Below are positions 15,201 through 35,689 of a DNA stretch of 64,000 nt, piece by piece; within the stretch, counting starts at the first letter, position 1, and each line of letters opens with the position of its first letter. The notes beneath the pieces were generated by a model, which saw only the letters and a list, made by a program, of their open reading frames with translations, was not told the origin of the DNA and ran no database searches. Both the position numbers and the translations under genes were made by a program. Source of the DNA: Candidatus Binatia bacterium (GTDB lineage: Bacteria; Desulfobacterota; Binatia; UBA12015); NCBI GenBank assembly GCA_046327915.1, contig JAXLXO010000026.1, forward strand, positions 23,069-87,068, in the 5' to 3' direction.

Positions 15201-15241
15201 CGTTCGTCGCCGTCGCCGTCGTCCCGCTCGCTCATCGTCAC
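12230..15241 (-). CDS. nirB: NAD(P)H nitrite reductase large subunit fused to a NirD-like Rieske domain (NirB-NirD)
   Basis: Rossmann motifs ([26 protein letters not shown]). BFD-like Cys pairs. Sirohaem/FeS motifs ([22 protein letters not shown]). C-terminal CPHRG...CPMHKK domain. Start is GTG 15241 or ATG 15235. Confidence 0.9.
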
Positions 15242-18873: not shown

Positions 18874-18874
18874 G

Positions 18875-20460: not shown

Positions 20461-20532
20461 CGTTCCCCCTCTCGCCTGATGGCGATCCGTGTGCGCACGA
20501 GCCGCACCACGAATCATGCTCTCGCCGTCACA

Positions 20533-21117
20533 TCAAGAATGGACGCGCTCCCGAAGCAGATCGACGGCCAGCGCGACGTGCGAATCCGGTGCGAGATCCG
20601 CGGCTTCGCCGAGGCGCGCGACCAGCGGAGCGAGGTGCGCAGCCACGAACGCGGCACGCGCCGCCGCAACGGTGTGCGCCGCCTCCGCGTCCCCGTTCGC
20701 CCAGGCGAGCGACTCCTTGAGCTCCAGAAATCCGACGAACCCCGCCTCCACGGCCACGTGGTCGGGCGGGTCCTCGGCACGGGGAGCGTAGCCGAACGCC
20801 TCGTAGAAGCGCGCCAGCTCCGAGAACATCCAGCCCGGATCGCCGAACCCCAGCGCACTCGCCTCGCGCGGCGACAGCGGCGCGCCCGGACCGAGCAGCG
20901 CGTGGTACTCGCCCTCGGTGATGCCGCGCGCGGCGGCGACGACCGCGCGCAGCGGCGGATCGTCGATCTCGTCCGCGAGGCGGTCGATCTCGGTGCTCCA
21001 GCCCGCGCGCGGACGCTCGAGGAGAAGTCCGAGCAGGCGCCAGTGCGCCGCGCGGGCGATTCCGTCGGCGACGCGGGTGGTGGCGCCCGCGTCGTGTCCG
21101 TTGCCTGCCGTGCTCAT
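20533..21117 (-). CDS. TorD/NarJ-family redox-enzyme maturation chaperone (delta)
   Basis: 194 aa. Core FYEAFGYAPRAEDPPDHVAVEAGFVGFL is typical of the family. ATGA overlap with the gamma gene. Confidence 0.7.
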   Translation of the reverse strand: MSTAGNGHDAGATTRVADGIARAAHWRLLGLLLERPRAGWSTEIDRLADEIDDPPLRAVVAAARGITEGEYHALLGPGAPLSPREASALGFGDPGWMFSELARFYEAFGYAPRAEDPPDHVAVEAGFVGFLELKESLAWANGDAEAAHTVAAARAAFVAAHLAPLVARLGEAADLAPDSHVALAVDLLRERVHS

Positions 21118-21968
21118 GGTGCCTCCGTCACACGCAGCGGCACCCAGCCGGTGCGCATCTTGCGCGCGCCGACCTCGCCGTGCTCGCCCGACCAGATCGC
21201 GAACGCGATCACGTCCGGAGTGTCGCCGCCGCCTCCGGCGAGCGGCCGCACGAGAACCACCGACCATCCCGACGGCGTGCGCACGCCGCGGCCCGTGGAC
21301 CGTGCGTGCTCCGCCGGGCGCAACGTGCCGGGCCCCTCGCCGACGAGGTCCTGCACCGGCTCGCTGCGCGGCCCCGCGACGTCGTTGCCGACCGCGCGCG
21401 CCGGTGCGTAGCGCTTCGCCATCGCCACCTGCTCGGGCGATCCCTTGACGAGGCTCGCCGCGTCGAACGGATAGCCGTCGACTCCCGCCGCGGGATAGAG
21501 CGCGCGGATGTCGTCCGGGCGTCCGTCGACGTTCGCCTGCCACGAGGCGCGCCAGTAGGTGATCTCGACCGGGCGTCCCGGCTCGCCCATCTGCGGCGCG
21601 GGAGCGTCGGGCGAGCGCTTCGCCGGCGTCTGCAGCGCGCAGGCGTCGGCGAACTTCGCCGGCCCCGGCACGTCGTTCGGGCTCGCATCGGACCAGTCGA
21701 GGCGGACGGCGAGCTTCGTGCCGTCGGTCAGGGCGCGCACGCGGACCTCCGGCGTCGACGGCGCGAGCAGGCGCGGCTCGACGATGTCCTGCAGTTGCAG
21801 CGCGGCGCGGTACTCCGGCGCGTCCTGCCAGGCGGCGTCGGCGGGATCGGTCGCGATCGCGGCGCGCCGCACGGCGCGGACCTCGGTCGCGGGCGTGTCC
21901 TGCGCCGGCTTGCCGCCGCAGCCGGCGAGCAGAAGGAAGATCGGGAGAAGCCGATGCCAGCGTCTCAT
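21114..21968 (-). CDS. EbdC/NxrC-like gamma subunit with lipoprotein-type signal peptide
   Basis: 284 aa. MRRWHRLLPIFLLLAGCGG lipobox. Resembles the ethylbenzene-dehydrogenase-gamma/DOMON-like fold family. SD GAGGAGG. Confidence 0.65.
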   Translation of the reverse strand: MRRWHRLLPIFLLLAGCGGKPAQDTPATEVRAVRRAAIATDPADAAWQDAPEYRAALQLQDIVEPRLLAPSTPEVRVRALTDGTKLAVRLDWSDASPNDVPGPAKFADACALQTPAKRSPDAPAPQMGEPGRPVEITYWRASWQANVDGRPDDIRALYPAAGVDGYPFDAASLVKGSPEQVAMAKRYAPARAVGNDVAGPRSEPVQDLVGEGPGTLRPAEHARSTGRGVRTPSGWSVVLVRPLAGGGGDTPDVIAFAIWSGEHGEVGARKMRTGWVPLRVTEAP

Positions 21969-21979
21969 GGCACACCTCC

Positions 21980-23109
<1,130 letters not shown>

Positions 23110-23110
<1 letters not shown>

Positions 23111-26100
23111 CAGACGTTCTCCTTCTTCGCGTCCGCCGCATCCTGCGGAGCGAGCTCGCCCGCGAGGTAACGCTTCATCACGTCGCTCTCGGTGCCCGGA
23201 CGGAGCCCGAGCTTCGCGGGACGCCACAGCCCCTCGCCGCCCATGCCGCCGGCCTCGGCCCTGGTGATCTTGACGATCGACTCGCGTGGCGCGCCGGTCG
23301 GGCAGTGCACGTCGGGCAGGAAGCCCTTGCCGATCTGCTGGCCGAAGAGCTCCTTGCGCACCAGCGAGTCGGTCATCCACGTCGGCTTCAGCCAGCCGCG
23401 CGTCGCCGCCTGGTGCGATCCGGAGCGGAACATCGCCTGGTAGTTGGTGCGCGGGTTCTTCGCGAGACCGTCGGGACGGCTCTTCGCTCCCTCGACCGAG
23501 CCGGGCGTCGCGCCGTACATGTTGAACCACATCCGCGTCACGCCGCGCGGCGTGCCCGGGTAGGCGCGCGCGCGGCACAGCAGCCGCGAGAACTCGTAGT
23601 CCTTCGCGTTGTTCTGCCACCCGCGGAACGGACGATCGGCGGGATCGGAGTCGATCCACACGTAGTCGCCGTCCGCGACGCCGAGGGCGCGGGCGTCCTC
23701 GGGATTGATGTCGACGTAGCCTTCGGCGACGAACGGCGCGCGCGTGTCGTGCCGGTACATGTCGCCGAACGGGCCGAACAGCATCGCGACGAAGTCGGTG
23801 TCGATCGGCATGGTGTGCGCGCCGTGCCGGTACTTGGGCGTGTGGAAGACGAAGCGGTAGCCGTCGTCGGCGAGCGGATGCTTCGTCGCGCGGGTCTCGG
23901 CCCACGTCAGCACCACGTTGCGGCCCTGCCGGGTCTCGCAGTCGAGCGCGTCCCGCGACACGCCGTAGTCCTCGGGCCCCTTCGGACGCAGCGCCTCGTG
24001 GCGCGGCGCGACGATCACGTTCGGCTGGTAGAACGTGGAGTCGATCGGCTCGCGATGCACGGGCAGGTTCTCGCCCGCCTCGATGAACTCGTCCTCGTCG
24101 CGGTAGAACTCGAGCCGTCCGGTCTTCGTGTACCAGGGCCGGTTCTCCTCGACCTGCTCCCAGCCGACGGCCTTCGGATAGGTGCGCGACATGAGCAGCG
24201 CGGGAATGCCGTTCTTCGCCTTCTCGTGCAGGTCGTCGATGTCGTAGCCCGCCGCGCAGGACGAGCCGTCGAGGATGCGCTGCAGGTAGGTCTGCACGCG
24301 CTTCTCGCGCACGAACTTCCAGCAGTCGTCGAAGCGCTTGTCGCCGGTGCGCTCGGCGAGCGCGTGGCCGACGTTCGCGAGCACCTCGATGTCGCCGCGC
24401 GTGTCGAAGAGGCGCGGCATCGGCGTCTCGGGGAAGACCGTGATGAACGGGTTGGTGACCGAGGCGCAGATGTCCGGGTACTTGAGCTCGGCCCAGGAGT
24501 CGACGGCGAACACGACGTCGGCCCACTCGCACGACGTCGACCACCACCACTCGTTGACGCAGATCATCTCGATCGTCGGCAGGACGTTGACGACCGTGTT
24601 GTAGTGCCACTTGACGTTGCCGAGGATCGAGTTCGCGTTCGCGAACCACATCGACTTCGTCGGCGTCGGGATGTGGCCCTTTCCGGTCAGCGTGCGGTTA
24701 CCGACCTTCAGGATGTGGTGCTCGTGGTTGTAGTAGTGCGCCGACTCGGGCTTCCAGTACTGCTTGACGCGCGCCGGCTTCGACGGATCGAGCTCGAGGT
24801 CGAACGGGTTCTCGTTGATGTACTGCGGCACGCCGTTGAACAGCGAGACGCGGTAGTTGCCGGCGAACGAGCCGACGTTGCCGGCGAAGCGGCCGACGTT
24901 GCCGGTCAGCGCCGCGAGCAGGAAGATGTCGCGGTCCTTGTTGTCGTTGTTGAAGAACTGGTTCGGTCCCATGCCGACCGCGAACAGCGTCGTGCCGGGG
25001 TGGGCCGCGATGTCGCGCGCGAGGCGCTGCACCGCGTCCGCCGGCGCCCACGTCATGTCCTCGACGGTCTTCGGATCGAAGTGCGCGGCGTACTCCTTGA
25101 CCAGGTCGAAGACCGGACGGCAGCGCACCTTGCTCCCGTCCTGCAGCGTGACCTCGACCGAGCCCTCGAGCAGCGCGTCCCTGGTCACGTCGGACTGCGC
25201 TCCCACGGCGTCGCGCACCAGGCGGCGCGGCGCCTTCGCCGCGGCGTCCCACCAGACGTAATCGCCCCACTCGGCGCGCAGCGCCGCGGGCAGGATCTGG
25301 TCGTTCTGCTTGCCCGGCGGCGGCGCCTTCTCGCCGGCGGGCAGGATCTTCGTCTGGTTCGTTAGCGTTGCCGGATCGCCGCCGAAGACGTCCTTCGCGC
25401 TCAGGTTCTTCAGCGTGTCCATGCGGACCAGGACCGGCAGGTCGGTCCACTGGCGCACGTAGTCGGCGTCGTAGAGCTTCTCCTGCAGCACGACGTTGGC
25501 GAGGCCGAGCGCCAGGGCCGGCGTCGTGCCGGGCCGAACGACGATCGCGTCGTCGGCCTTCGACGAGGTCGACGAGTACTCGCACGCGATGTTGACGATG
25601 CGCGTGCCCTTGAGGCGCGCCTCCGTCATCCAGTGCGCGTCGGGCATCTTGGTCGTCACCCAGTTCATGCCCCAGATGACGAGCGTGCGGCACAGCTCGA
25701 CCGAGCTGAGATCGAACTCGACCGTCTGCTGGCCGGTCACCATCGGGTGACCCGGCGGCAGGTCGGTGTGCCAGGAGTAGTTGTCGAAGCCGCGCGCGCC
25801 CATCGCCTTGTCCGGCTCGACGCCGCGGATCTTCGCGTCGAGCAGCGCCATCGAGTTCGCGAGCCGGTACATGCCGAACACGCGCGTCAAGCCAAGAAGG
25901 GGCATGCCGCCGCGGAACTTGAGCACCTGCGTGCCGACGCCCTGCGTCGCCGCGACCACCTCGTCCTGGTAGCCCTGCGCGTGCAGCAGCCTCTGGCCCG
26001 CCTCGCCGTTGTAGGTCTCGGTGATGTTGACCAGCGCCGCGGCGACGATCGCCGCCGCCTCCTCGTGCGTGACGCGCAGCCACTCGTCGCGCGCGCGCTG

Positions 26101-26580
26101 GAACATCTCCTTCGGCGGACGTCCGTTCTCGTCGCGCGGGAAGCCCGCGTCGACCCACTGCTTGAAGCCCTTGCGCACCATCGGGTGGCGCACGCGCCGG
26201 TCGCCGTAGAAGCGGCGCGTGAGCGCGAGCCCCTTCTGGCAGACGCGCGGATCCCAGCGGTGCGACGCCTTGTTGCCGTCGAGATCGGTCGCCTCGCCGT
26301 AGCGCATGGTCGGCCCGATGCGCGTCACCACCCCCGAGCGCACGTACGCGTTCAGGATGCAGTTGTGCGTGTCGTTGGGCGCGCACAGGAAGGTGAATTT
26401 CGAGTCCGTCTTCCAGAGATCGCGGTAGGCGTTCTCCCAGTCGCGGCTCGGGTAGCGCGCGAGGGGGTTCTCGACCGCGTCGAGGCCCCACGCCCGCGTC
26501 GCCGACTGCACGAACGCTCCGAAGCCGAGCGCGCTCGCCCCCTCGAGGAACTGGCGCCGCGACAGGCCGTTGGATTTCAT
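23110..26580 (-). CDS. Tat-exported type II DMSO-reductase-family catalytic alpha subunit (NarG/NxrA-like)
   Basis: 1156 aa. Twin-arginine signal [24 protein letters not shown]-x3-D-x3-C-x39-C FeS motif. [11 protein letters not shown] contains the Asp that ligates Mo in NarG-type enzymes. SD GGGAGGA. Confidence 0.9.
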
Positions 26581-28247
26581 CTCGGGTCCTCCCAGCTGCG
26601 CAGGTACGTCGCGATCGCGACGATCTCGTCGTCGGCGAGCACGCGGTGCGCGGGCGATGCCGAGCCGAAGGCCGGCATCGAGGTGCCGCGGCGGCCGCGG
26701 CGGATCGTCTCGACGAGGTAGGTGTCGCTCGCGGCGGCGAGGAAGCGGCGGTTGGCGAGCGCCGGGCCTTCCTTGCCCTCGCCGTTCGCGCCGTGACACG
26801 ACGCGCACGACTCCGCGTACAGGCGCGCGCCGGTGGTCGCGTCACCGCCGAGCCAGCGCAGCGGCTGCGCGTCGACCGGGGCGTCGACGCCACCGGCGAG
26901 CGTCCGCAGGTGCGCGATCACCGCGTCGATCTCCTCCGGACGCAGGCCACCGGATCCCTCGCCCCACGCCGGCATGCGCCGTCCCGGACGTCCGTGCGTG
27001 ATGGTCTCGCGCAGGAAGCGGTCGGACGCGACGGCGAGGAAGTCGGGATTCGCGACGGCCGGGAACGCCGCCGCGCCGCCGTAGCGCATGCCCTCGCCCG
27101 ACGGACCGTGGCAGGCCGCGCAGAACGTGCCCCAGAGGGTCGCGCCGTCGGCCGCGAACTCGCGCTCGCCGAAGCGCTCGGCGCGGATGCGGTCGCGCGG
27201 CCAGAACTTCTCCGGCCGGTCGCTGCGGCGCAGCGACAGCATGTAGAACGTCAGCAGGTCGACCTGCCTGTCGTCGAGGCCGAGGACCGGCATCCGCGAG
27301 CCCGGCACCACCGCCGCGGGATCGCGGAAGTGCGCGCCGAACCAGCTCGACAGCGTGTGCTCGGGCACGCCGTGGAAGCTCGTCTGTCCGGGGTCCTTGT
27401 CGCCGACGTGCGTGAGATCCGGACCGTCGTCGCCGCCGACGCCGGCGATCTTGTGGCAGCCCCGGCAGCCGAGCTCGTGAAAGGCCGCCTTCGCGGCGAC
27501 GAGATCGGGCGCGCCGACGCGCGAGTCGAGGTAGGCGCGGATGACGTCGCGATCGTGCGCCGGGATCGGACCGAACGACGAGCGCCACGGCCCCTCGGTC
27601 GCGGCCTCGTGCCGCGCGAGATGCTCGTCGTACCAGCGCGGATCGACGCCGCGCGCCCCCACGCGGGACAGGTCGGGCGAAGGGATGCCGGCGGTGCCGG
27701 GACGCGTGGTGCCGCCGCGTCCGTCGAGCGCATGGCAGGCGAGGCAGTCGTTGCGCTCGAGCACGGCGAGGCCCTGCGCGAGATCGGCGCGCCGCGGCAC
27801 GGCGACGTGCGTGTGGCAGCTGCCGCAGCCCGCCCACGCGTAGCGTGCCGGCAGCATCGGCTCCGGCCAGTGCGGCACGGTGCCGTGCGCATCGCCGGTC
27901 TCGGTCGCGCGCCCCTGACCGCCGTGGCAGGCGACGCAGCCGAAGTCCGCCGGATCGTGCGCGACGTCCGGGTGCGGACCGAGCACCGGGTCGCCCGCGA
28001 TGCCGTGCTCGCCGGGCGCCATGCCGACGTGGCAGCTGATGCAGCGGTCGGTCGCGCCCAGCGCGGGCACGTAGCTCTGCCGCAGCTGCACCGCGAACGC
28101 GGCCGCCTGCTCGGGCGCGAGCCGGGCCTGGTAGCCGCGCTGGATGCGGCGCCAGTCGCGGTCGACGTTCTCGCGCCAGATCGCGACCAGCAGCAACGCG
28201 AGCGTTCCGAGGCTCGCGACGAGGAGGAGGATCTTGTTCGCGCGCAC
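26577..28247 (-). CDS. Membrane-anchored heptahaem cytochrome c
   Basis: N-terminal TM helix. Seven CxxCH motifs (CISCH, CVACH, CGSCH, CLACH, CRGCH, CAACH, CASCH). ATGA overlap with the alpha gene. Confidence 0.85.
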
Positions 28248-28257
28248 GGCCGTTCCC

Positions 28258-29796
28258 TCAGTGCGCCGGCCAGTCCGCGGGCGACCAGAAGAAGTGCCAG
28301 TTCGGTCCGCGGAAGTGGACGCCGACGATGGTCAGCACGATGAAGCCGCACAGGAAGCAGGTGAAGAGCGCGAGCGCGCCGGCGCGCGTCGAGTCGTAGC
28401 GCTTGACGCACCAGAGCGACCAGACGGCGTACGCGAAGGCGAGCAGCGTTCCCGGATTGACGAACGTCACGACCAGCTGCGGGATGTCGGGGAACCACTC
28501 GCGCAGCCAGCCGAAGCGGATCGCCAGCGCCTCGATGCCGATCACCGTCGCGAGCCCGAAGACGGCCGAGCGCAGCACCAGCGGCAGGCCGCCCGGGCCG
28601 CCGAACCACTCGCCGGTGCCCTCGGTCTCGCGGTCGAGCAGCGGGATCAGCGTCAATCCCAGGATGACCAGCGTGGGCAGGCCCATGCCGCCCATGAACG
28701 CCGAGTACGCGACCAGCTCCTGCAGGCCGAGGAAGTACCAGGGCGCCTTGGCGGGATTCTCCGGCACGGCCGGATTGGCGAGCTCCTTGAGCGGCGCGTC
28801 GGAGTACAGCGCCAGCGCGAGGCACACCAGCACCGTGAGCATGAAGACCGCGAGCTCGGCGTAGAACAGGTGCGGCATCGCGGGCACGGTCTTCTCCGGC
28901 GCGCGCCCGACCGCCGGCGACGTGCCGCGCACCAGGGCCGCGAGCTGGTAGGTCTTGCGAGGCGCGTCGGTGAACACCGGCTGCACCGGAACCGGCGAGT
29001 CCGCGACGCGCAGGTCCGCGTCCGCGGGCCGCGCGAGCCCGCCGTCCTTGCGGATGCGCCAGAAGTGCACGCCGAGCAGCACGCCGAGCAGCAGAGGCAG
29101 CACCATCACGTGCAGCAGGTAGAAGCGGATCAGCGCCTCTTCGCCGATCTCCTCCGAGCCGAGCAGGATGAACTTCACCATGCCGCCGGGATCGAAGTGC
29201 GACGTCCAGCCGAGCGCGTCGGTGATCTCGCGCGGCGACTGCGCGATGTTCGCGCCGATGGTGATCGCCCAGTACGCGAGCTGGTCCCACGGCAGCAGGT
29301 AGCCGGTGAACGAGAGGCCGAGAGTCAGGACCAGCAGACCCATCCCGATCACCCAGTTGAACTCGCGCGGCTTGCGGTACGACGCCGTGTAGAAGATGCG
29401 CGCCATGTGGGCGAACACGACGAACACCATCACCTGCGCCGCCCAGCGGTGGATGTTGCGGATGAGCTTGCCGGTCGGGACGACGAAGTGGATGTCCTTG
29501 ACGGACCAGTACGCCACCTCGGGGTACGGCTTGTAGTAGAACATCAGCAGGATCCCGGTGCCGAGCGTCACCAGGAACGCGGACAGCGCCGCGATGCCGA
29601 GCCCCCACGTGGTGCTCCAGCGGAACGTCCACAGGTGGACGCGCACGCTGTGCAGGTGCAGGAAGAGGTTGCCGAACACGAACGACGAGCGCGCGCGGTC
29701 GGTGGTCGGCGCACCGGTGCGCGACACCGCGCCGCGCAGCGTCTGCGGCAGCGTGCGCAGGTTGGTGCCGAAGCGCTGCAGGCCGGTGGCGCTCAC
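28258..29796 (-). CDS. Cytochrome b (long, fused type with extra C-terminal helices), Rieske/cyt b module 1
   Basis: 512 aa from GTG 29796 (GTGA overlap). HRWAAQVMVFVVFAHMARIFYTASYRKPRE and FYLLHVMVLPLLLGVLLGVHF His pairs. PWYFLG motif. Confidence 0.8.
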   Translation of the reverse strand: MSATGLQRFGTNLRTLPQTLRGAVSRTGAPTTDRARSSFVFGNLFLHLHSVRVHLWTFRWSTTWGLGIAALSAFLVTLGTGILLMFYYKPYPEVAYWSVKDIHFVVPTGKLIRNIHRWAAQVMVFVVFAHMARIFYTASYRKPREFNWVIGMGLLVLTLGLSFTGYLLPWDQLAYWAITIGANIAQSPREITDALGWTSHFDPGGMVKFILLGSEEIGEEALIRFYLLHVMVLPLLLGVLLGVHFWRIRKDGGLARPADADLRVADSPVPVQPVFTDAPRKTYQLAALVRGTSPAVGRAPEKTVPAMPHLFYAELAVFMLTVLVCLALALYSDAPLKELANPAVPENPAKAPWYFLGLQELVAYSAFMGGMGLPTLVILGLTLIPLLDRETEGTGEWFGGPGGLPLVLRSAVFGLATVIGIEALAIRFGWLREWFPDIPQLVVTFVNPGTLLAFAYAVWSLWCVKRYDSTRAGALALFTCFLCGFIVLTIVGVHFRGPNWHFFWSPADWPAH

Positions 29797-30299
29797 GTCG
29801 TCACCTTCGTTCCCGGCGCGACGGTCTGGCTCTCGTCGACGAGGTAGCTGCCGCCTCCCGCGGACGATACCGCGAGCCACGGCAGCGCCTTCGGCGCCGG
29901 CCCCTTCGTCACCGCGCCGTCGAGCTTGAACTGCGAGCCGTGGCACGGGCACGCGAAGCCCGCGCCCTCCTGCTTGACGATGCAGCCGAGGTGCGTGCAG
30001 ACGGTCGACAGCGCCCACACGCCGCTCGCGTCGCGGAACACCGCGACCGAGCGGCCCTGCGGCACGAACGGCTCGCCGGCGGCCAGCGTCTCCGGCAGCG
30101 TGACGCGGAACTTGCGCGACGGCACCGGCACCACCGCGGCGCGCGGCAGGCGAAGGGCGCCGACCGCGGCGACCGCGAGCGCCGCGACCGCCGACCACAG
30201 CGCGGCGAGGCCCAGGAAGTCGCGGCGCGCCACCGGTGGTGGCGCGAGGCGCGAGCCGGCCGCTGCGGGAGCGTCGTCTGCCGATCGGGTCTGGCTCAT
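29793..30299 (-). CDS. Rieske [2Fe-2S] subunit with Tat motif, module 1
   Basis: 168 aa. RRDFLGLAAL Tat motif. CTHLGC...CPCHGSQF boxes. ATGA overlap with the upstream gene. Confidence 0.8.
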   Translation of the reverse strand: MSQTRSADDAPAAAGSRLAPPPVARRDFLGLAALWSAVAALAVAAVGALRLPRAAVVPVPSRKFRVTLPETLAAGEPFVPQGRSVAVFRDASGVWALSTVCTHLGCIVKQEGAGFACPCHGSQFKLDGAVTKGPAPKALPWLAVSSAGGGSYLVDESQTVAPGTKVTT

Positions 30300-32266
30300 G
30301 CGTGGCTCCACTCGGTCGTGAAGCGGACGCGCTCCATCTCGATCGCGTCCGCGGGACAGCGCATCGCGCACAGGGCGCAGCGGATGCAGCGGTCCTCGTC
30401 CTTCAGGATGGCGGTGATCTCGAGAGCGTCGTCCGCGCACGGCGCACCGTCGTGCGCGAGGCTCGCCGCGAGCACGGCATCGATCTCGGGAGTCGGCTCG
30501 AGGTCGGCGAGACGCGCGAGCTTCAGGCAGGACGTGGGGCAGACGTCGACGCATCCGCCGCACAGCACGCAGCGCGTGCCGTCGAACACCGGCGCGACGC
30601 CGCAATCGAGACAGCGCGACGCTTCGCGCCGTGCGAGCGCCTCGTCGAAGCCGCGCTCGACGGACGTTCCCGGCTCGCCGAGCCGCTCCGCGACCGACCG
30701 CGTCGGGACCTCCTGGCGCGGCACCGACTCGTACTGCTGCTCGCGCCGGTACCGTTCGAGCGGCACGTGCACCTCGACGGCGCGCGGCTGCAGCCGGCTT
30801 CCGGTGACGAACTCGTAGACCGAGCGCGCCGCACGCTTGCCGGACGCGACCGCATCGATGAGCAGCCGCGTGCCGTGCGCGAGATCGCCGGCGACGAACA
30901 CGCCCGGCGCGCTGCTGGCGAGCGTCGCGGCGTCGACCTTCGGCCAGCCGGGGCGGAGCTCCTCGACGTCGCCGCCGCCGTCGGCGAGGAACGACAGGTC
31001 CGGCGCCTGCCCCGCCGCGATCAGCACCGTGTCGCACGGGATCACGTGGCGATCGGCGTCGTCGAAGACCGGCGAGAAGCGGCGCTGCTCGTCGTACACG
31101 CGCAGGCAGCGGCGGACCTCGACCCCGGTCACGCGACCGTCCTCGTCGCGCCGGATCTCGACCGGGCCGAAGCCGCTCCAGCGCTCGATGCCCTCCTCGT
31201 CGCCCTCGACGATCTCGACGGTGTCGGCCGGCATCTCCTCGAGCGTCTCGAGCGACACGAGGTGCACGCGGCGTCCGCCGATCAGGCGTGCCGCCGTGCG
31301 TGCGGCGTCGAGCGCCGCCTGCCGCACGACGGTGCGCGCGACGTCGTAGGCGACGTTGCCGCCACCGATCACGACCGCCTCCCGGCCGAGGTCGAACGGC
31401 TCGTCGAGAGCGACCGCGCGCAGGAGGTCGACGCCACCGTACACGCGGGGACCGCTCTCCCCGGGCAGGCCGAGCGCGCGCGGACGCTTCGCGCCGACGG
31501 CGATGACGACCGCGGCGAAGTCGCGGCGCAGCGCGGCGAACGAGACGTCACGCCCGATCGCGACCCCGGTGCGGATCTCGACCCCGAGGGCCTCGATCAC
31601 CGCGACCTCCTCGCGGATCACCTCGCGCGGCAGGCGGTACGACGGAACGCCGAGCGCCAGCATCCCGGCCGCGATGCGCTCGATCTCGAACACCACCGGA
31701 CGGAAGCCCATCAGCGCGAGGTCGTGCGCCGCCGAAAGACCTGCCGGTCCGGCGCCGACGATCGCCACCGGCGTCCCGTCCACGGGACGGAAGCCGCCGC
31801 GCGCGCACGCACGCACCAGCGCCGCCATCTCTTCGGGTCCGGCGCACACCTTCGGGTCGTGGCCGTGCAGGGCGTCGAGCGTCGCGCGCGCGCCGCGCGC
31901 CTCGGCGCCGAAGCTCTCGCAGGCGAAGCGCTTCAGCGCGCGGATCGCGATCGGCTGATCGGTGCCGAGATACGATCCGTCCGGCGCGATGCGCGGGATG
32001 CGGCCGCGCCGGCAGGCGGCCTCGCACGGCGCACCGCAGATCCGCCCGCAGATCGAGGCGAACGGATTCGGGCCGCGGGCGATGAGATACGCCTCCGCGA
32101 TCCGCCCCTCCGCGATCGCGCGCACGTAGCCGCGCGCGTCGGTGTGCACGGGGCACGCGACCTGACAGGAGATCAGCTGCCGATGGTGGCTCTCGTCGGG
32201 AACGTCGACGTCCAGACGAGGGGTTCCGGGAATGGCGGCCACGGCGTCTGCCAGAGCAACGCTCAT
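30296..32266 (-). CDS. GltD-like NAD(P)H-dependent FAD/Fe-S oxidoreductase with C-terminal 2x[4Fe-4S] ferredoxin domain
   Basis: N-terminal Cys region (CQVACPV, NPFASICGRICGAPCEAAC). Rossmann motifs (VAIVGAGPAGLSAA, VVIGGGNVAYDVA). C-terminal CVLCGGCVDVCP and CIRCALCAMRCP. Confidence 0.85.
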   Translation of the reverse strand: MSVALADAVAAIPGTPRLDVDVPDESHHRQLISCQVACPVHTDARGYVRAIAEGRIAEAYLIARGPNPFASICGRICGAPCEAACRRGRIPRIAPDGSYLGTDQPIAIRALKRFACESFGAEARGARATLDALHGHDPKVCAGPEEMAALVRACARGGFRPVDGTPVAIVGAGPAGLSAAHDLALMGFRPVVFEIERIAAGMLALGVPSYRLPREVIREEVAVIEALGVEIRTGVAIGRDVSFAALRRDFAAVVIAVGAKRPRALGLPGESGPRVYGGVDLLRAVALDEPFDLGREAVVIGGGNVAYDVARTVVRQAALDAARTAARLIGGRRVHLVSLETLEEMPADTVEIVEGDEEGIERWSGFGPVEIRRDEDGRVTGVEVRRCLRVYDEQRRFSPVFDDADRHVIPCDTVLIAAGQAPDLSFLADGGGDVEELRPGWPKVDAATLASSAPGVFVAGDLAHGTRLLIDAVASGKRAARSVYEFVTGSRLQPRAVEVHVPLERYRREQQYESVPRQEVPTRSVAERLGEPGTSVERGFDEALARREASRCLDCGVAPVFDGTRCVLCGGCVDVCPTSCLKLARLADLEPTPEIDAVLAASLAHDGAPCADDALEITAILKDEDRCIRCALCAMRCPADAIEMERVRFTTEWSHA

Positions 32267-32474
32267 GCCCCGACGAACCGCCGATCATCGCCGCTTATGC
32301 GCCCGATTTGTCGCTTCCAAATAGCGACATTGAGAACCCGGCCGGCTCGCGTTCCCGCGGCTGGGAACTCCGGGCGCCGGGAGTCTGCCCGTCATCTGGA
32401 CCGTCGTCGGCCCGTCAGAGGACGACGCCCGCCGCGTCTTCCTCCCGTCGTGATCGGCGAAGCCGGTGCGGACG

Positions 32475-33758
32475 TCAGTGCCTCGCGTGGCTGCAGATCC
32501 CGGCCCCGCCGAGCGCCGCGAGATAGGCGAGCGGCTGGTCGGGATCGAACGTGCGTCCGTCGAGGAACGCGTCCGCACCCATCACGATCGGTGACGTCGC
32601 CGCGCCGAGCAGCCACGGACCGTCGTGGACGCCCTCGTCCTTCGCGTCGATCAGCGGCACCGGAATCCCGAGCGGGGCCGCGGCCTCGCGGTACACGTCG
32701 CAGCGGTAGACGGCGGCACTCACCGCGGCGAAGTCGACGGGCGACTCGATCTGTCCCCAGCGCAGCATCTGGGTCAGGAACCAGACCGCGTGCGAGCGCC
32801 ACGGAAAGGTCGCGGCACCGCGAAAGAAGGTACCCGCGCGCGACGACGGCTCGTCCCCGGGACGCACGGCACCCGCGAGCGCGCGTTCGATGACCTCGAC
32901 CGGGGCGTCGACGTGGCTCTCGCCGGCGATCACGTGCAGCGTCTCGAGGTGGTTCTCGGGTCGGTCGATCCAGCGCGCGGCGTCGACGATCGCACGCACC
33001 AGCGCGCGATGCGTGTGCGGGTGGCGCTCGGCCCAGGCGCGCGTGACGCCGAGGACCTTCTCCGGCGCGTTGTTCCAGACGTCGTACGAACGCACGACGG
33101 TGTTCCCGCAGCCGAGGTGGGCCGCGTGCGCGCCCCACGGCTCGCCGACGCAGTAGCCGTCGATCGTGCCGTCGGCGAGCGCCGCGACCATGGCGCTCGG
33201 CGGCAGGATGCGGATCTCGACGTCGCGGTCCGGGTCGATGCCGCCGGTCGCGAGCCAGTAGCGGAGCTCGTAGTTGTGCGCCGAGAACGGGTACACCACC
33301 GCGAACACGAGCGGCGGCCGCCCGCGACGGCGCCCCTCCTCGATCACCGCCTGCAGCGCGCGTGCCGGCATGGGGTCCTGCCGCGCCGCCTGCGAATCGG
33401 CCTCGCGCATGCGGCGGTGCAGGTCGGTCGACACCGTGATCGCGTTGCCGTTGAGACCGAGCGACAGCGCGGTCACCATCGGCACCGCGCGTGCGCCCGC
33501 GCCGAGCGTCGCCGCGAGCGTCATCGGCGCGAGCATCTGCGCCGCGTCGAGCAGGCCGGCCTCCAGATTGTCGCGCACGTTCGCCCACGAGCGCTCGCGC
33601 GACAGCGTGACGTCGAGGCCGTGCCTGCGGAAGAAGCCGCGCTCCTTCGCGACGACCAGCGGTGCCGCGTCGAGCAGCGGGACGAAGCCGAGCCGGAGCG
33701 TGCTCTTCTCGAGATCCTCGTCGGCAGCCGCCCAGTCGGCGGATCGGATCGTCAGCAT
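32475..33758 (-). CDS. nasS: Cytoplasmic NrtA-like nitrate/nitrite-binding sensor protein NasS
   Basis: 427 aa with no signal peptide. LRLGFVPLLDAAPLVVAKERGFF binding-protein fold. Lies directly downstream of the ANTAR regulator. Confidence 0.8.
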   Translation of the reverse strand: MLTIRSADWAAADEDLEKSTLRLGFVPLLDAAPLVVAKERGFFRRHGLDVTLSRERSWANVRDNLEAGLLDAAQMLAPMTLAATLGAGARAVPMVTALSLGLNGNAITVSTDLHRRMREADSQAARQDPMPARALQAVIEEGRRRGRPPLVFAVVYPFSAHNYELRYWLATGGIDPDRDVEIRILPPSAMVAALADGTIDGYCVGEPWGAHAAHLGCGNTVVRSYDVWNNAPEKVLGVTRAWAERHPHTHRALVRAIVDAARWIDRPENHLETLHVIAGESHVDAPVEVIERALAGAVRPGDEPSSRAGTFFRGAATFPWRSHAVWFLTQMLRWGQIESPVDFAAVSAAVYRCDVYREAAAPLGIPVPLIDAKDEGVHDGPWLLGAATSPIVMGADAFLDGRTFDPDQPLAYLAALGGAGICSHARH

Positions 33759-33771
33759 GCGCGTGTCCTCT

Positions 33772-34389
33772 TCACAGGAGCGTCGCCATCTCGATGACGT
33801 TGCGCGCCACGTCGGCGAGGCGCTGGCCGCGGCTCATCGCCATCTGCCGCAGCATCCGGTACGCGTCGTCCTCGCTGCAGCCGCGGCGCTGCATCAGGAT
33901 GCCCTTCGCGCGCTCGACGAGCTTGCGCTCCGCGAGCGAGTTGCGCGCCTCGTCGAGCTCGATCCTGAGGCTCTGAAAGGCGCGGAAGCGCGCCAGCGCG
34001 ACCTCGACCACCGGACGAACGCGCTCCGGGCTGGCGCCCTTGACGACGTACGACGCGACGCCGGCCTCGACCGCCGCGCGGATCGACGCGCTGTCGCTCT
34101 CGTCGACGAACATCACGATCGGCCGCGGCTGCTCGAGGAACACGCGGCGCGAGTCCTCGAGGATGTCGCGGTCGGGCGAGTCCATGTCGACGATGATGAC
34201 GTCGGGCTCGAGCTCGCGGACGCAGCGCAGCAGGTCGAAGCTTCCGGACGGCGGCGTCAGCGCGACGTACCCCTCGCGCTCGAGTGCCTCGCGCAGCGCG
34301 TGCGACCGGTCGACGGTGCGGTCGACGATCAGGACGCGGAGGTCTCGCGGCGACGGAGAGGGCGGGACCTTCTGTGTGACCTGGGACAA
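33772..34389 (-). CDS. nasT: Response-regulator/ANTAR antiterminator NasT
   Basis: REC domain (LRVLIVDR...DVIIVDMDSPD) plus ANTAR domain (ERKLVERAKGILMQRRGCSEDDAYRMLRQMAMSRGQRLADVA). TTG 34389 with GGAAGG SD at 6 nt is proposed, but the start is uncertain. Confidence 0.8.
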   Translation of the reverse strand: MSQVTQKVPPSPSPRDLRVLIVDRTVDRSHALREALEREGYVALTPPSGSFDLLRCVRELEPDVIIVDMDSPDRDILEDSRRVFLEQPRPIVMFVDESDSASIRAAVEAGVASYVVKGASPERVRPVVEVALARFRAFQSLRIELDEARNSLAERKLVERAKGILMQRRGCSEDDAYRMLRQMAMSRGQRLADVARNVIEMATLL

Positions 34390-34603
34390 ATGGTGCCTTC
34401 CCGCGACGTCCTGCGACCGGCTCGACGCCAGCGACACCCCGTCCTTTGCAAGGCTTGCGCCACCGGCACGCAGCCGCGAAGCGCCGTCGCCCGAGCGCGC
34501 GGCGCGCGCGCGAGCGCCTCCGAGCCCAAACGGTGAGCACGCGGTGCCTGCTTCTCGCGCGCCGGTTCGCCCGTCCGGAATCGGCGCGCTATACGCGGTC
34601 GCC

Positions 34604-35689
34604 ATGCAGAGCGGGTCGCGGCCGGTGGCAACGGAGGTGCGCGCGCTCGCGCTGCCGGACGTCGCCGCGTGGTCCACGGCGGTGCTCGCGCCGTGGCTGC
34701 TCGGACGCGGCATGCTGCTGCTCGTCGCGTCGAGCGCGGCACGCTACCGCGGCAAGACGTTTCTCGCCGGCTACGCGGTCTGGGACGGCGCCTGGTACGC
34801 GCAGATCGCGCGCGACGGCTACGGCTTCACCTCGGTGCGCGGCGAGATGCCGTGGCCGTTCTTCCCGCTGTTCCCGGCGGTCCTGAACGTCGGCGAGCGG
34901 CTCGGCGTTCCGGCCGCGGCGACCGGATTGATCGTCAATCACCTGGTCCTGCTGCTGGCGATGACCGGCGTGTGGGCGATCACGGCCGCGCACGGCACGC
35001 GCCGCGAGGCGGCTCTGGCGTCGTGGTCGCTGGGGCTCTTCCCGGGCACGGTCGCGCTCACCCTGCTCTATCCCGACGCGCTCTTCCTCGCGTGCGGCGT
35101 GTGGGCCTTCCTCGCGATCGAGCGCGGACGCGACACGACCGCGGCGCTGCTCGGTGCGGTCGCCGCACTCGTCCGGCCGAACGGCGCGGTGCTCGCGGCG
35201 AGCCTCGGCGCCGCCGTCCTGCTCGCGGGCGGGTCCTGGCGGCGCGCGGCGGGCGTGGTCGTGCCGGCCGCCGCCTGCGTCGCCGCGTGGCTCGCCTTCC
35301 TCTGGCTGCGCGCCGGCGACCCGCTCGCCTTCGTGCACGCCAAGGCCGCGTGGCACGAGGTCACGCTGGTGTCGCTGCTCTCGGGCGCCGACTCGCTGCC
35401 GAAGCTCGACGCGGCCCCGCTCGTTCTCGCCGTGCTCGTCATCGGGCTCGCGTGGCGGCGCCTGCCCGCCGGCTGGCTGGTGCTCGCGGCGCTCACGCTG
35501 CTGCCGTCGCTCGGGCTCGGCATCCTCGGCATGCCGCGCTACACCGCCGCCTGCTTCGTGGTCTTCGTCGCGGGCGGCATGGCGCTCGCGCGTCTGCCGC
35601 GCGGCGCCGTCGCCGCGATCCTCGCGGCGTTCGCCTTCGGGCTGCTGTCGCTCGGCGTGCGCGTGCTGCGCTCGGAGCACATGCCGTGA
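34604..35689 (+). CDS. Polytopic membrane glycosyl(mannosyl)transferase-like protein (PIG-V/GT-C-like)
   Basis: 361 aa from ATG 34604. About 9 TM segments. WDGAWYAQIARDGY motif. Confidence 0.6.
   Translation: MQSGSRPVATEVRALALPDVAAWSTAVLAPWLLGRGMLLLVASSAARYRGKTFLAGYAVWDGAWYAQIARDGYGFTSVRGEMPWPFFPLFPAVLNVGERLGVPAAATGLIVNHLVLLLAMTGVWAITAAHGTRREAALASWSLGLFPGTVALTLLYPDALFLACGVWAFLAIERGRDTTAALLGAVAALVRPNGAVLAASLGAAVLLAGGSWRRAAGVVVPAAACVAAWLAFLWLRAGDPLAFVHAKAAWHEVTLVSLLSGADSLPKLDAAPLVLAVLVIGLAWRRLPAGWLVLAALTLLPSLGLGILGMPRYTAACFVVFVAGGMALARLPRGAVAAILAAFAFGLLSLGVRVLRSEHMP

Follow-up and report, generated by a model that had tools for sequence, protein, structure and literature searches.

[quoted passage not shown] The Kuenenia subunits orthologous to those treated below co-migrate as one complex (de Almeida 2016, cited in PMC12954380), and His43 and Arg247 of Kuste4571 are described at the site of a proposed extra haem b between the monomers (PMC12954380). 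Bifurcation is biochemically unproven even for the anammox complexes (PMC12954380, PMC12485887). The initial annotation of the present locus had set such complexes apart from canonical bc1/b6f complexes, said to have no pyridine-nucleotide subunit; this holds with the nuance that FNR can be obtained together with b6f purified from plants and cyanobacteria (a finding cited in PMC5600118).

Related cytochromes b have been noted more widely. In the passages on subfamily G in Dibrova (2013, 2017; PMC5600118), these cytochromes b are described as co-occurring "in many other cases" with large, Cys-rich, NAD(P)-binding oxidoreductases, and the long G' forms as sitting in large conserved operons of unknown function. 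An uncharacterised clade with the Qo motif APWY, spread over phyla, is described in the corresponding part of Kao and Hunte (2014; PMC4122944).

The window, i.e. the whole stretch of 64,000 nucleotides analysed, contains an operon of eight genes in the order flavoprotein, Rieske protein, fused cytochrome b6/subunit IV, heptahaem cytochrome c, NxrA, NxrB, NxrC and chaperone. The flavoprotein encoded by the first gene is very probably a subunit of an anammox-type Rieske/cytochrome b complex.

Operon structure and transcription

All features given here and below lie on the minus strand (-). The flavoprotein gene (30296..32266) has an ATG start and encodes 656 amino acids with Fer4_20, Pyr_redox_2 and Fer4 domains; its codon GC pattern of 0.77/0.53/0.91 is typical of coding sequence in a window of 71% GC. 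Stop/start overlaps are found along the operon. At the flavoprotein/Rieske-1 junction the sequence, read directly, is gcATGAgc (overlap at 30296..30299), in which 30298-30296 is the TGA that ends the flavoprotein gene and 30299-30297 the ATG that opens Rieske-1, as the initial annotation had it. The same 4-bp overlap is present in the homologous loci L070, L071, L072 and L078.

Joint rather than separate transcription, presupposed when the genes were first described as an operon, is borne out by four metatranscriptomes of low RNA depth, in which contigs carrying no strand information bridge the junctions from flavoprotein to Rieske, from Rieske to cytochrome b and from cytochrome b to haem c. 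Coverage extends from the flavoprotein to the haem c gene and leaves the upstream nasS/nasT genes uncovered. The furthest-upstream contigs end at 32055-32223, still within the flavoprotein gene but close to its 5' end, and in all four metatranscriptomes the bins from 32340 upstream are zero except for one short contig. Judged from these contig ends, the intergenic leader of 208 nt 5' of the flavoprotein gene (32267..32474) is the probable promoter region; searches of it gave neither an Rfam match nor a sigma-70 consensus or intrinsic terminator.

Flavoprotein

The Pfam matches and motifs agree with the earlier description of a GltD-like FeS flavoprotein with two dinucleotide folds and a C-terminal 2x[4Fe-4S] domain. 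Pfam places Fer4_20 at residues 33-119 (E 3.8e-15), Pyr_redox_2 at 166-476 (E 2.4e-22) and 4Fe-4S dicluster models at 559-643. The FAD and NAD(H) dinucleotide folds (residues 166-476; 30839..31771; Pfam Pyr_redox_2 and alignment) carry the two dinucleotide-binding motifs VAIVGAGPAGL (167-177) and VVIGGGNVAYD (298-308), and the C-terminus has two CxxCxxCxxxCP motifs (C566/569/572/576 and C627/630/633/637). A phmmer search against the PDB gave NfnB (4ylf_B, E 9e-54) and GltD (2vdc_G, E 2e-37), and the protein scores under the curated cut-off of every NCBIfam family model. The AlphaFold2 monomer model is poor (pLDDT 54).

The glutamate-synthase-small-subunit architecture first assigned to the protein stands for the core fold but not for a standard GltD-type N-terminal FeS domain. 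The N-terminal FeS region (residues 33-119; 31910..32170) contains C34, C38, C73, C77, C81 and C85, six cysteines that are invariant in 32 homologues, and it lacks the first CxxC of canonical Fer4_20 when aligned with GltD/NfnB-like and Kuenenia proteins. An "EASRCLxC" element is N-terminal in the canonical relatives, whereas in the window protein and in Kuenenia it lies behind the flavin domains. In the window it reads "EASRCLDC" and precedes the 2x[4Fe-4S] ferredoxin domain (together 30332..30634, from the alignment); its cysteines C552 and C555 (30602-30613) are invariant among the homologues. As aligned, the FeS domain is circularly permuted with respect to its first Cys pair.

The topology scan found no signal peptide, signal motif or hydrophobic segment in the flavoprotein, while Rieske-1, haem c and NxrA are on the periplasmic side, the first and last with Tat motifs and haem c with an anchor. 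The flavoprotein is predicted to be cytoplasmic and an N-side subunit of Rieske/cytochrome b module 1, in keeping with the docking on the N-side of cytochrome b that had been anticipated.

At the NAD(P) site Glu340 (31247-31249) lies in "VSLEtlEEMPA", which is aligned with "VYRRtkEEMPA" in Kuenenia. S338, L339 and E340 do not vary among 32 homologues, and the cbb3-linked clade described below has "VCLESRAEMPA" in this region. In Rossmann folds a Glu at that position usually marks a site for NAD(H) and not for NADP(H), and Glu340 suggests NADH rather than NADPH as the cofactor.

Rieske-1, cytochrome b-1 and heptahaem cytochrome c

Rieske-1 (29793..30299; 168 aa; Pfam Rieske, E 1.9e-12) has a Tat motif, RRDFL (30213-30227), and one membrane anchor. 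Its top PDB match is 9rk4, the Kuste4569 Rieske protein (E 3.9e-15). The cluster boxes CTHLGC...CPCHGSQF (29928-29999) are of the "SF" type, in contrast to the low-potential "GF" type of the flavoprotein-less module 2 of the window. The scale of signatures and potentials is that of PMC3509893, and for the SF-type Rieske protein Kustd1480 a potential of +335 mV has been measured (PMC12954380).

Cytochrome b-1 (28258..29796; 512 aa; Pfam Cytochrome_B) has a GTG start overlapping the Rieske-1 stop. It joins b6-like and subunit-IV-like parts in one protein, which is 46% identical to cytochrome b and 44% identical to subunit IV of Kuenenia, and the haem-ligand histidines are conserved in the alignment. 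Motif alignment places LHLH at 29650-29661, with His47 corresponding to His43 of Kuste4571, and WRIRKDGG in the Arg247 region of that protein. This histidine and the arginine of WRIRKDGG occur in every flavoprotein-linked cytochrome b examined and are absent from cytochrome b-2 of the window. The extra haem b proposed at the His47 site is putative and known from a model of the Kuenenia complex. The Qo motif APWY (residues 351-354; 28735-28746) lies in the segment NPAKAPWYFLGLQE; nearly the same segment, APWY included, recurs in the proteins of Kuenenia, of the cbb3-linked clade and of L075, whereas cytochrome b-2 carries PEWF in place of APWY. The CxGG cysteine is absent from cytochrome b-1 in the alignment, where T(W/F/L/M)GLG in the window (TWGLG) and in all NXR- and cbb3-linked relatives stands against TWCMGG in Kuenenia. 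No Qi site was identified in window-clade cytochrome b by motif alignment.

The membrane-anchored heptahaem cytochrome c (26577..28247; 556 aa; seven CxxCH; Pfam) has an N-terminal anchor and three class-I cytochrome c domains at the C-terminus. A weak match to the Kuenenia kuste4573 orthologue (E 3e-9) covers its N-terminal part.

Nitrite oxidoreductase-type genes

The NxrA-type molybdopterin subunit (23110..26580; 1156 aa) starts with an ATG that overlaps the haem c stop and carries the Tat motif SRRQFL. It matches Kuenenia NxrA (PDB 7B04_B) over residues 6-1148 with E 1.2e-268, and the C-x-PNDTH-x-C motif is common to both. The NxrB-type FeS subunit (21980..23110; 376 aa; Pfam Fer4_11) matches the NCBIfam model DMSO_red_II_bet with E 4.5e-79, under the curated cut-off. 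The NxrC-type haem b subunit of the EB_dh family (21114..21968; Pfam EB_dh, E 1.4e-16) has a lipoprotein-like signal and also matches DMSO_red_II_gam (NCBIfam). The ATG of the NarJ/TorD-type chaperone gene (20533..21117; Pfam Nitrate_red_del, E 8.5e-6) overlaps the NxrC stop. By the features tested, NxrABC would be a periplasmic nitrite oxidoreductase (NXR) of the Nitrospira/anammox type.

Homologous loci

The co-occurrence with Rieske/cytochrome b genes that had been expected across genomes was found in all 13 other loci with a close homologue of the flavoprotein (65-83% identity). The order flavoprotein-Rieske-cytochrome b is the same throughout, followed by haem c and then NxrABC-chaperone where the contig extends. 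The hosts belong to Binatia, Thermodesulfobacteriota, Limnocylindria and Acidobacteriota, at least four phyla; GC ranges from 54% to 73% and the outer flanks are unrelated. Neither gltB nor nfnA nor fdhA stands beside the flavoprotein gene in these 14 loci (window + 13 others).

The co-occurrence extends to a sister clade with 41% identity, whose flavoprotein adjoins Rieske/cytochrome b genes and cbb3 oxidase genes, and whose cytochrome b has LH(I/L)H and APWY too. In a neighbour-joining tree, with four outgroups only, the Rieske/cytochrome b-linked flavoproteins form one clade (90/100 bootstraps). LH(L/I)H and WR(I/V)RKDG in cytochrome b co-vary with an N-side FeS or flavoprotein gene, and distant flavoprotein homologues without Rieske/cytochrome b neighbours lack the NAD domain or the permutation. 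The window clade and its cbb3-linked sister include MAGs labelled Bryobacteraceae, Terriglobales, Pyrinomonadaceae, Bacteroidota and Ignavibacteria, which are mostly organotrophic groups.

Proposed function and alternatives

The tentatively preferred reading, which falls a little short of probable, is that the flavoprotein, as the N-side, NAD(H)-binding subunit with FAD and four FeS clusters, works in an anammox-type Rieske/cytochrome b complex which is produced along with the periplasmic NXR of the same operon, and that electrons pass from menaquinol to nitrate and NAD+. Menaquinol would presumably be the substrate oxidised at the Qo site, where the APWY motif is present. The first electron would pass through the SF-type Rieske-1 and the anchored heptahaem c to NxrC, NxrB and NxrA, which would reduce nitrate to nitrite in the periplasm, a path drawn from gene content and topology. 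The second, low-potential electron would cross the membrane via the two b haems and reach the extra haem b, which His47 would bind between the two copies of cytochrome b; from there it would travel through the clusters of the ferredoxin domain and then those of the permuted Fer4_20 until it arrives at FAD. After two turnovers NAD+ would be reduced, by homology with the Kuenenia model and with Glu340 suggesting NADH as the product. The net reaction would be 2 MKH2 + NO3- + NAD+ -> 2 MK + NO2- + NADH.

The bifurcating, NAD+-reducing direction is a possible one, to be taken with some reserve. The modules appear to run from quinol to acceptor, because the sister clade is clustered with a cbb3 oxidase, an obligate electron sink. 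The "SF" signature of Rieske-1, set against the "GF" signature of module 2, also speaks for this direction. The nitrate/nitrite couple has a potential of about +430 mV. With MK-7 at -70 mV and NAD(P) at -320 mV, bifurcation is allowed if the acceptor lies at about +380 mV or higher (PMC12954380), and nitrate/nitrite is energetically better still than this threshold. Against a Kuenenia-type working stand the identity of only 34% between the flavoproteins, the different gene order and the absence of the haem cN cysteine; Arg511 of Kuste4570, modelled near the extra haem, is apparently a glycine in the window, from an alignment read by eye. Under a membrane potential, moreover, electrons of the N-side haems may be too weak to reduce NAD+, while NADH oxidation is downhill.

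NADH oxidation as an input, although doubtful in itself, is nearly as plausible as menaquinol bifurcation to nitrate and NAD+. NADH would pass electrons via FAD and the four FeS clusters to the N-side haems, which would reduce menaquinone at or near Qi; the quinol would be oxidised at Qo, and Rieske-1, haem c and NXR would bring its electrons to periplasmic nitrate, with energy conserved by the Q cycle only. The window complex would then work as an NADH:nitrate oxidoreductase, that of the sister clade as an NADH:O2 oxidoreductase. Glu340 in "VSLE" is of the NAD(H) type expected for a catabolic dehydrogenase, the MAG groups named above have no obvious shortage of NADH, and the step from NADH (-320 mV) to menaquinone (-70 mV) is downhill with no special tuning needed. 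The accessible haem cN and nearby histidine, noted by Hauser et al. as compatible with quinone reduction (PMC12954380), would fit as well, but in the window clade the cysteine for haem cN is missing and the alignment shows no recognisable Qi site. Such an input is wasteful compared with complex I according to the same authors (PMC12954380), and it leaves unexplained why high-potential-type Rieske signatures are found in the flavoprotein-linked modules and not in module 2.

Nitrite oxidation is possible in principle because NXR-type enzymes are reversible, but it is improbable here. NXR would oxidise nitrite and the Rieske/cytochrome b complex would run in reverse, lifting electrons to menaquinone, with energy from the proton-motive force and/or from NADH via the flavoprotein (confurcation). 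NxrA is of the type found in NXR of Nitrospira, Nitrospina and anammox bacteria, a related NxrA of the NC10 genome CSP1-5 has been read as that of a nitrite oxidiser (PMC6094997), and Kao and Hunte regard APWY complexes as reverse-running and the motif as their mark (PMC4122944). The sister clade, however, has an APWY cytochrome b wired to a cbb3 oxidase, which is an electron acceptor only. A reversed Q cycle does not need the flavoprotein, and spending NADH to push nitrite electrons to quinone brings no evident gain, the mean donor (estimated at about +55 mV) lying above menaquinone. The operon contains no terminal oxidase gene and is surrounded by nitrate/nitrite assimilation genes, directly downstream of a nasT/nasS-like regulator pair.

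That the flavoprotein is an independent soluble GltD/NfnB-like enzyme, e.g. a ferredoxin- or formate-linked NAD(P) oxidoreductase merely sharing the operon, is very improbable: names such as "glutamate synthase beta subunit-like" or "formate dehydrogenase beta subunit" for its homologues, the solubility of the NfnB, GltD and DPD families and the scores below all curated cut-offs would agree with it, but they are outweighed by the lack of adjacent gltB, nfnA or fdhA in the 14 loci, the invariant position and Rieske overlap, the co-varying cytochrome b motifs, the co-migration in Kuenenia (de Almeida 2016, cited in PMC12954380) and the loss of the NAD domain or permutation in homologues without Rieske/cytochrome b neighbours.

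If menaquinol bifurcation to nitrate and NAD+ is generalised, the operon would be a quinone-based bifurcating machine widespread outside anammox bacteria, splitting menaquinol at an APWY Qo site between nitrate via NXR, or O2 via cbb3 in the sister clade, and cytoplasmic NAD+; this wider reading is unlikely as it stands. If true, soil and sludge bacteria would gain a route from quinol-level substrates to NADH without reverse complex I, and a Rieske/cytochrome b complex would drive the endergonic reduction of a soluble cofactor in place of a Q cycle. Since the operon is found in several non-anammox phyla, the long-debated quinol-driven reduction of NAD(P)+ could be tested outside anammox bacteria.

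Comparison with known systems

NfnB, GltD and the N-terminal part of dihydropyrimidine dehydrogenase share the core fold family (Fer4_20 + Pyr_redox_2) with the window flavoprotein, and in NfnB the flavin of this fold family is the bifurcating one. The window protein differs in its permuted first Cys pair, its extra C-terminal 2x[4Fe-4S] domain, its scores under the curated NCBIfam cut-offs and the lack of a GltB or NfnA partner. Membership of the GltD/NfnB group was considered and rejected: in place of a contiguous eight-Cys N-terminal Fer4_20 the first CxxC is moved to C552/C555, and in place of gltB or nfnA the invariant neighbour in the window and the 13 loci is the Rieske gene.

For the halves of cytochrome b-1 the best NCBIfam matches are ExtP and ExtQ of the Geobacter Ext cluster (NF040969 and NF040970; E 2e-69 and 2e-17), both below cut-offs. 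A similar layout was observed at locus L075, where a 474-aa poly-FeS protein, a Rieske protein and an LHLH/APWY cytochrome b adjoin a molybdoenzyme; the N-side partner there is a poly-ferredoxin, in the window a flavoprotein. By description, cytochrome b-1 resembles the G' and APWY-clade proteins in being long, in having APWY and in lacking CxGG. In the parts of PMC5600118 and PMC4122944 dealing with these groups, the NXR and cbb3 partnerships and the flavoprotein permutation are not described.

In haloarchaeal pNar and in the Methanoperedens model, Rieske/cytochrome b complexes likewise deliver quinol electrons to a periplasm-facing nitrate reductase of the Nar/NXR family (PMC3509893, PMC4683180). 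The haloarchaeal Rieske/cytochrome b and pNar genes form one cluster, while for Methanoperedens the connection of Nar with the Rieske/cytochrome b cluster is a model proposal and not a demonstrated single cluster. Unlike the window complex, these complexes have no flavoprotein; their cytochromes b belong to other clades (actinobacterial/Thermus-like in haloarchaea), and electrons are carried by a b-type cytochrome or by pentahaem cytochromes, where the window has a heptahaem c.

The Kuenenia complexes encoded by Kuste4569-4574 and Kustd1480-1485 are the most similar. There too the Rieske/cytochrome b operon includes a gene for a flavoprotein that has FAD, an NAD(P) fold and four Cys clusters. 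The flavoproteins share the permuted "RCLxC" element and the C-terminal ferredoxin domain; the cytochromes b are b6-like with LHLH, WR(I/V)RKDGG and the APWY Qo motif; the Rieske proteins are of the SY/SF type; and an anchored multihaem c takes the place of cytochrome f/c1. The partner enzyme is NXR in the same operon of the window, whereas it is a HAO-like octahaem protein in Kuenenia. The window cytochrome b and subunit IV are fused, unlike those of Kuenenia, and lack the CxGG cysteine for haem cN that Kuenenia has. The NAD domain has a 12-residue insertion relative to the Kuenenia flavoprotein and reads "SLE" instead of "YRR" at the NAD(P) site, which hints at NADH. In the window the flavoprotein gene comes before the Rieske gene, while in Kuenenia the Rieske gene is first, and the hosts of the window type, unlike Kuenenia, are not anammox bacteria. 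The anammox comparison made in the initial annotation is supported by the signature residues of cytochrome b-1, which are modelled where flavoprotein and haem meet, and by a full-length alignment of the flavoprotein with the kuste4570 orthologue of Kuenenia sp. (34% identity, residues 29-649 against 21-571, E 1e-89). Judged from these alignments, the relation of the window complex to the anammox complex is one of homology, beyond analogy.

Gene organization of the operon

Because the GC content of the window is about 71%, reading frames were selected by third-position GC. The flavoprotein gene (30296-32266, minus strand) has an ATG start, encodes 656 amino acids and has a codon GC pattern of 0.77/0.53/0.91. 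The Pfam domains are Fer4_20 (residues 33-119), Pyr_redox_2 (166-476) and 4Fe-4S dicluster models (559-643), and inspection of the protein sequence shows a pair of glycine-rich dinucleotide motifs together with two CxxCxxCxxxCP motifs. In gcATGAgc the stop codon of the flavoprotein (30298-30296) overlaps the ATG of Rieske-1 (30299-30297). All features listed in the initial annotation, that is an FeS region, two dinucleotide folds, a C-terminal ferredoxin domain and the ATGA overlap, are thus present. Neither a signal motif nor a hydrophobic segment was found in the flavoprotein, consistent with the cytoplasmic location that had been assumed. An AlphaFold2 model built with 32 homologues had a mean pLDDT of 54 and left the FeS domains unresolved. 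The automatic names glutamate synthase small subunit and formate dehydrogenase beta subunit were rejected; the partner genes are absent nearby and every NCBIfam score of the flavoprotein is below the cut-off.

Seven genes follow on the same strand: Rieske-1 (29793-30299; Tat motif RRDFL, single anchor), cytochrome b-1 (28258-29796; 512 amino acids, with a GTG start overlapping the Rieske-1 stop), heptahaem c (26577-28247; seven CxxCH, N-terminal anchor), an NxrA-type subunit (23110-26580; Tat motif SRRQFL), an FeS NxrB-type subunit (21980-23110), an NxrC-type subunit with an EB_dh haem b domain (21114-21968) and, last, a NarJ-type chaperone (20533-21117). Five of the seven junctions are stop/start overlaps of 1-4 bases. 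The NxrA-type molybdenum subunit matches Kuenenia NxrA (PDB 7B04) over the whole length (E 1.2e-268), and both have the C-x-PNDTH-x-C motif. The analysis establishes the content, order, coupling, homology, topology and joint transcription of these genes; from there we infer that the gene products assemble physically and pass electrons between them.

The operon is located within a nitrate-assimilation-like cluster, all on the minus strand. Upstream (32475-34713) are a nasT-like response regulator with an ANTAR domain (33772-34713) and a nasS-like sensor (NrtA/NMT1_2; 32475-33758); downstream (6740-15241) are genes for NirB/NirD-like (12230-15241) and NasC-like (9007-11163) proteins and an MFS transporter (6740-8281). 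This position suggests that the operon may be controlled by nitrate or nitrite. The arrangement is absent around the operon in the other loci.

Module 2 (17188-20517, minus strand) lacks a flavoprotein. It comprises Rieske-2 of the 'GF' type (CPCHNGTF), cytochrome b-2 (350 amino acids, Qo motif PEWF, no LHLH) and an HAO-like octahaem c with eight CxxCH. The same operon of Rieske, split cytochrome b and octahaem genes is found in Nitrospina, Kuenenia and M. oxyfera (Nitrospina genome paper, PMC3578206). In three of the comparison loci (L070, L071 and L078) the NXR operon has no module 2 behind it. An outer-membrane porin of the Alginate_exp family adjoins the NXR operon in three loci, the window (15588-17162, minus strand), L001 (610-1962) and L078 (21726-end); the window and L001 proteins are 43% identical. 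Its substrate may be nitrate/nitrite.

Conservation across genomes

A search of 5.8 billion proteins with the flavoprotein returned 120 clusters with at least 69% identity. Nine close genome loci (65-75% identity to the window flavoprotein) belong to Limnocylindria, Sulfopaludibacter, Bryobacteraceae, Solibacteraceae, other Acidobacteriota and one Clostridia-labelled MAG. The order flavoprotein, Rieske, cytochrome b is kept in all nine, and the haem c and NxrA genes are found in eight, to the contig limits. Four further loci, from Binatia, a Thermodesulfobacteriota MAG (83% identity, 73% GC) and two ENA contigs, have the eight-gene operon with the same 4-bp overlaps, the retrieved flank ending inside the last gene in two of them. 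The flavoprotein therefore adjoins the Rieske gene in all nine close and all four further loci, and the initial concern that the pair might be a peculiarity of this contig did not hold. With a GC content from 54% to 73% and unrelated outer flanks among the loci, the operon behaves as a self-contained module. An exhaustive search (E up to 1e-30, clusters at 50% identity) gave 2,504 clusters; among the best 150 of these, roughly 45 by hand count are proteins of 600-650 amino acids that match the query from end to end.

Expression and leader

Wastewater and sludge metagenomes contain the window sequence in abundance. In one study, four metatranscriptomes (X28, X29, X31 and X34) gave specific coverage of 26.0-32.2 kb, with a depth mostly of 2-18, and zero coverage from 32340 upstream except for one 209-nt contig at 32948-33156. 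Over 34.5-54 kb X28 gave only spurious short matches. Contigs bridge the flavoprotein/Rieske (29985-30809), Rieske/cytochrome b and cytochrome b/haem c junctions, and those reaching furthest upstream stop at 32055-32223, just inside the flavoprotein gene. Low in depth and unstranded as these contigs are, the bridged junctions and the upstream limit support a single transcript that starts in the 208-nt leader, and the flavoprotein/Rieske contigs speak against the separate transcription that had been considered at the outset. Since the module is expressed in sludge, it may contribute to nitrate/nitrite turnover there.

Two sludge libraries labelled 'TRANSCRIPTOMIC RNA-Seq Oligo-dT' (X25 and X27) gave a high depth over 15-50 kb without a gene-specific pattern, in genes of both strands and intergenic sequence alike. 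Because the high depth extends to unrelated genes on both strands, these reads look DNA-derived; both libraries and X26 from the same study (compared over 15-34.5 kb only) were left out of the expression evidence.

The leader (32267-32474) contains no Rfam family, sigma-70 consensus or intrinsic terminator, no ANTAR/NasT target could be demonstrated in it, and the fold z-score of the whole leader is only -2.1. A hairpin, GUCGCU-AUUUGGA-AGCGAC, without an Rfam match is located at 32310-32328 (minus strand), about 45 nt 5' of the flavoprotein ATG.

Relation to the anammox complex

A genome scan with the flavoprotein also gave proteins of 30-35% identity in Planctomycetota and others (L010-L051), with a Brocadiaceae locus (L015) among them. 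Rieske and cytochrome b genes are absent within 8 kb of all of these, and of those aligned, most are either without the NAD domain or GltD/NfnB-like proteins of the ordinary kind. They proved to be paralogues and were rejected as the anammox subunit, which was therefore sought by way of the Rieske protein. Rieske-1 has its best PDB hit in 9rk4 (E 3.9e-15), the Rieske protein Kuste4569 of the Kuenenia complex, and with this sequence as query a Kuenenia sp. locus (L068) was retrieved in which the gene order is Rieske, flavoprotein, cytochrome b, subunit IV, multihaem c and HAO-like protein. Residues 29-649 of the window flavoprotein align with the Kuenenia protein at 34% identity (E 1e-89). In cytochrome b-1, the first half has 46% identity to the Kuenenia cytochrome b and the second half 44% to subunit IV, while the likeness of the haem c proteins is confined to the N-terminal part.

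The ordinary GltD/NfnB-like FeS domain opens with 'EASRCLxC..PxCxxxCP'. In both Kuenenia and the window clade the flavoprotein N-terminus begins at the third cysteine, and 'EA(S/N)RCL(D/K)C' is found behind the flavin domains, directly before the 2x[4Fe-4S] domain; all eight Fer4_20 cysteines are thus kept, in circularly permuted order. Adding the ferredoxin domain brings the predicted clusters to four, the number in the model of the Kuenenia flavoprotein by Hauser et al. (PMC12954380). C116, C387 and C411 are invariant, yet outside these clusters. In the prediction of the same authors, His43 from both Kuste4571 copies holds an extra haem b, with Arg247 close by (PMC12954380). LHLH (His47) and WRIRKDGG are present in every flavoprotein-linked cytochrome b aligned and absent from cytochrome b-2, and the Qo motif is APWY in all of the former. 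As shared derived characters, the permuted FeS motif, LHLH/WRIRKDGG and APWY strengthen the case for kinship with the anammox complexes.

The window differs from Kuenenia in gene order, in the partner enzyme (NXR), in the fusion of cytochrome b with subunit IV and in the lack of the CxGG cysteine for haem cN in cytochrome b-1. The NAD(P) site reads 'VSLE..EMPA' in the window, with an invariant Glu340, and 'VYRR..EMPA' in Kuenenia. By the usual Rossmann-fold rule such a glutamate goes with NADH rather than NADPH, which points to a probable preference for NADH in the window flavoprotein. The NAD domain also has a 12-residue insertion relative to Kuenenia, which is kept throughout the window clade and is longer in the cbb3-linked clade. 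At amino acids 305-328 (31283-31354, minus strand) a helix of this domain appears duplicated compared with Kuenenia, 'VAYDVARTVVRQ' then 'AALDAARTAARL'.

A cbb3-linked sister form

Other loci were found through non-anammox relatives of the Kuste4569 Rieske protein. In three of them, L074 (6812-15700, no taxon label), L076 (9001-19866, a Bacteroidetes-labelled MAG) and L077 (1989-13030, flavoprotein labelled Terriglobales), the genes for a homologous flavoprotein, Rieske, a multihaem c and an LH(I)H/APWY cytochrome b directly adjoin those of cbb3 oxidase (CcoN/O). These clusters also carry FixG; FixS is present in L074 and L076, and an Rrf2 regulator is found upstream in L076 and L077. Identity to the window flavoprotein, measured for L074, is 41% (E 6e-151). 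This clade is likewise large. A simple neighbour-joining tree, with only four outgroups, pairs the NXR-linked with the cbb3-linked flavoproteins as sisters in 100 of 100 bootstraps and groups both with Kuenenia in 90 of 100.

In L075 (1920-10719) the gene of a 474-amino-acid poly-[4Fe-4S] protein overlaps the Rieske start, with an LHLH/APWY cytochrome b and subunit IV next in line; the cluster adjoins a different molybdopterin enzyme that has NrfD and FeS subunits. In this cytochrome b clade the N-side FeS partner is therefore not a flavoprotein in every case. The best NCBIfam matches of cytochrome b-1 are Geobacter ExtP and ExtQ.

Direction of electron flow

Forward operation, from quinol to nitrate, is favoured on three grounds: the sister module feeds an oxidase, which is unable to donate electrons; a reversed Q cycle has no role for the flavoprotein; and NADH spent on lifting nitrite electrons to the quinone pool would gain nothing. 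Tentatively, and with slightly under an even chance of being correct, this operation is read as a bifurcation in which quinol electrons would be split between nitrate and NAD+. Published figures allow such a bifurcation thermodynamically with menaquinone (PMC12954380). It also fits the 'SF' type of Rieske-1 as against the 'GF' type of Rieske-2 in the flavoprotein-less module. Forward operation with NADH as an input is considered somewhat less likely; it would be downhill, and agrees with the NADH-type site and with the mostly organotrophic lifestyle of many of the labelled host lineages. The view that APWY complexes run in reverse (Kao and Hunte, PMC4122944) is weakened by the cbb3-linked sister, which combines an APWY cytochrome b with an oxidase.

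Comparison with known systems

The proposal that Rieske/cytochrome b complexes can pass the low-potential electron to NAD(P)+ was made for anammox bacteria by Kartal 2013 and de Almeida 2016; Rieske potentials and models followed in 2025 (PMC12954380). It rests on gene content, subunit co-migration, Rieske potentials and models. Dibrova et al. point out the co-occurrence of NAD(P)-binding FeS proteins with subfamily G cytochromes b 'in many other cases', and place G' cytochromes in large operons with function unassigned (PMC5600118). A Rieske/cytochrome b tied to a periplasmic Nar is known in haloarchaea (PMC3509893) and proposed for Methanoperedens (PMC4683180). DAMO_0768 and the Nar genes DAMO_0774-0779 of Methylomirabilis oxyfera were not equated with the operon; the NarG there is of the Nitrobacter type (PMC6094997). 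In the part of the literature covered, no description was found of a flavoprotein-Rieske/cytochrome b-NXR operon, the cbb3-linked sister, the permutation or the NADH-type site.

Anammox bacteria grow slowly and, to our knowledge, are not genetically tractable. The NXR-joined module occurs in Binatia, Thermodesulfobacteriota, Chloroflexota and Acidobacteriota, and the cbb3-joined form in Bacteroidota, Acidobacteriota and, by MAG labels, Ignavibacteria. The same flavoprotein/cytochrome b design thus extends beyond anammox bacteria. As a consequence, more organisms, possibly including cultivable aerobes, would be available for testing the mechanism, and the oxidase partner of the sister form provides a comparative argument on the direction in which electrons flow. 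A further consequence is that the 'NXR' genes of MAGs of this kind should not by default be taken to indicate nitrite oxidation.
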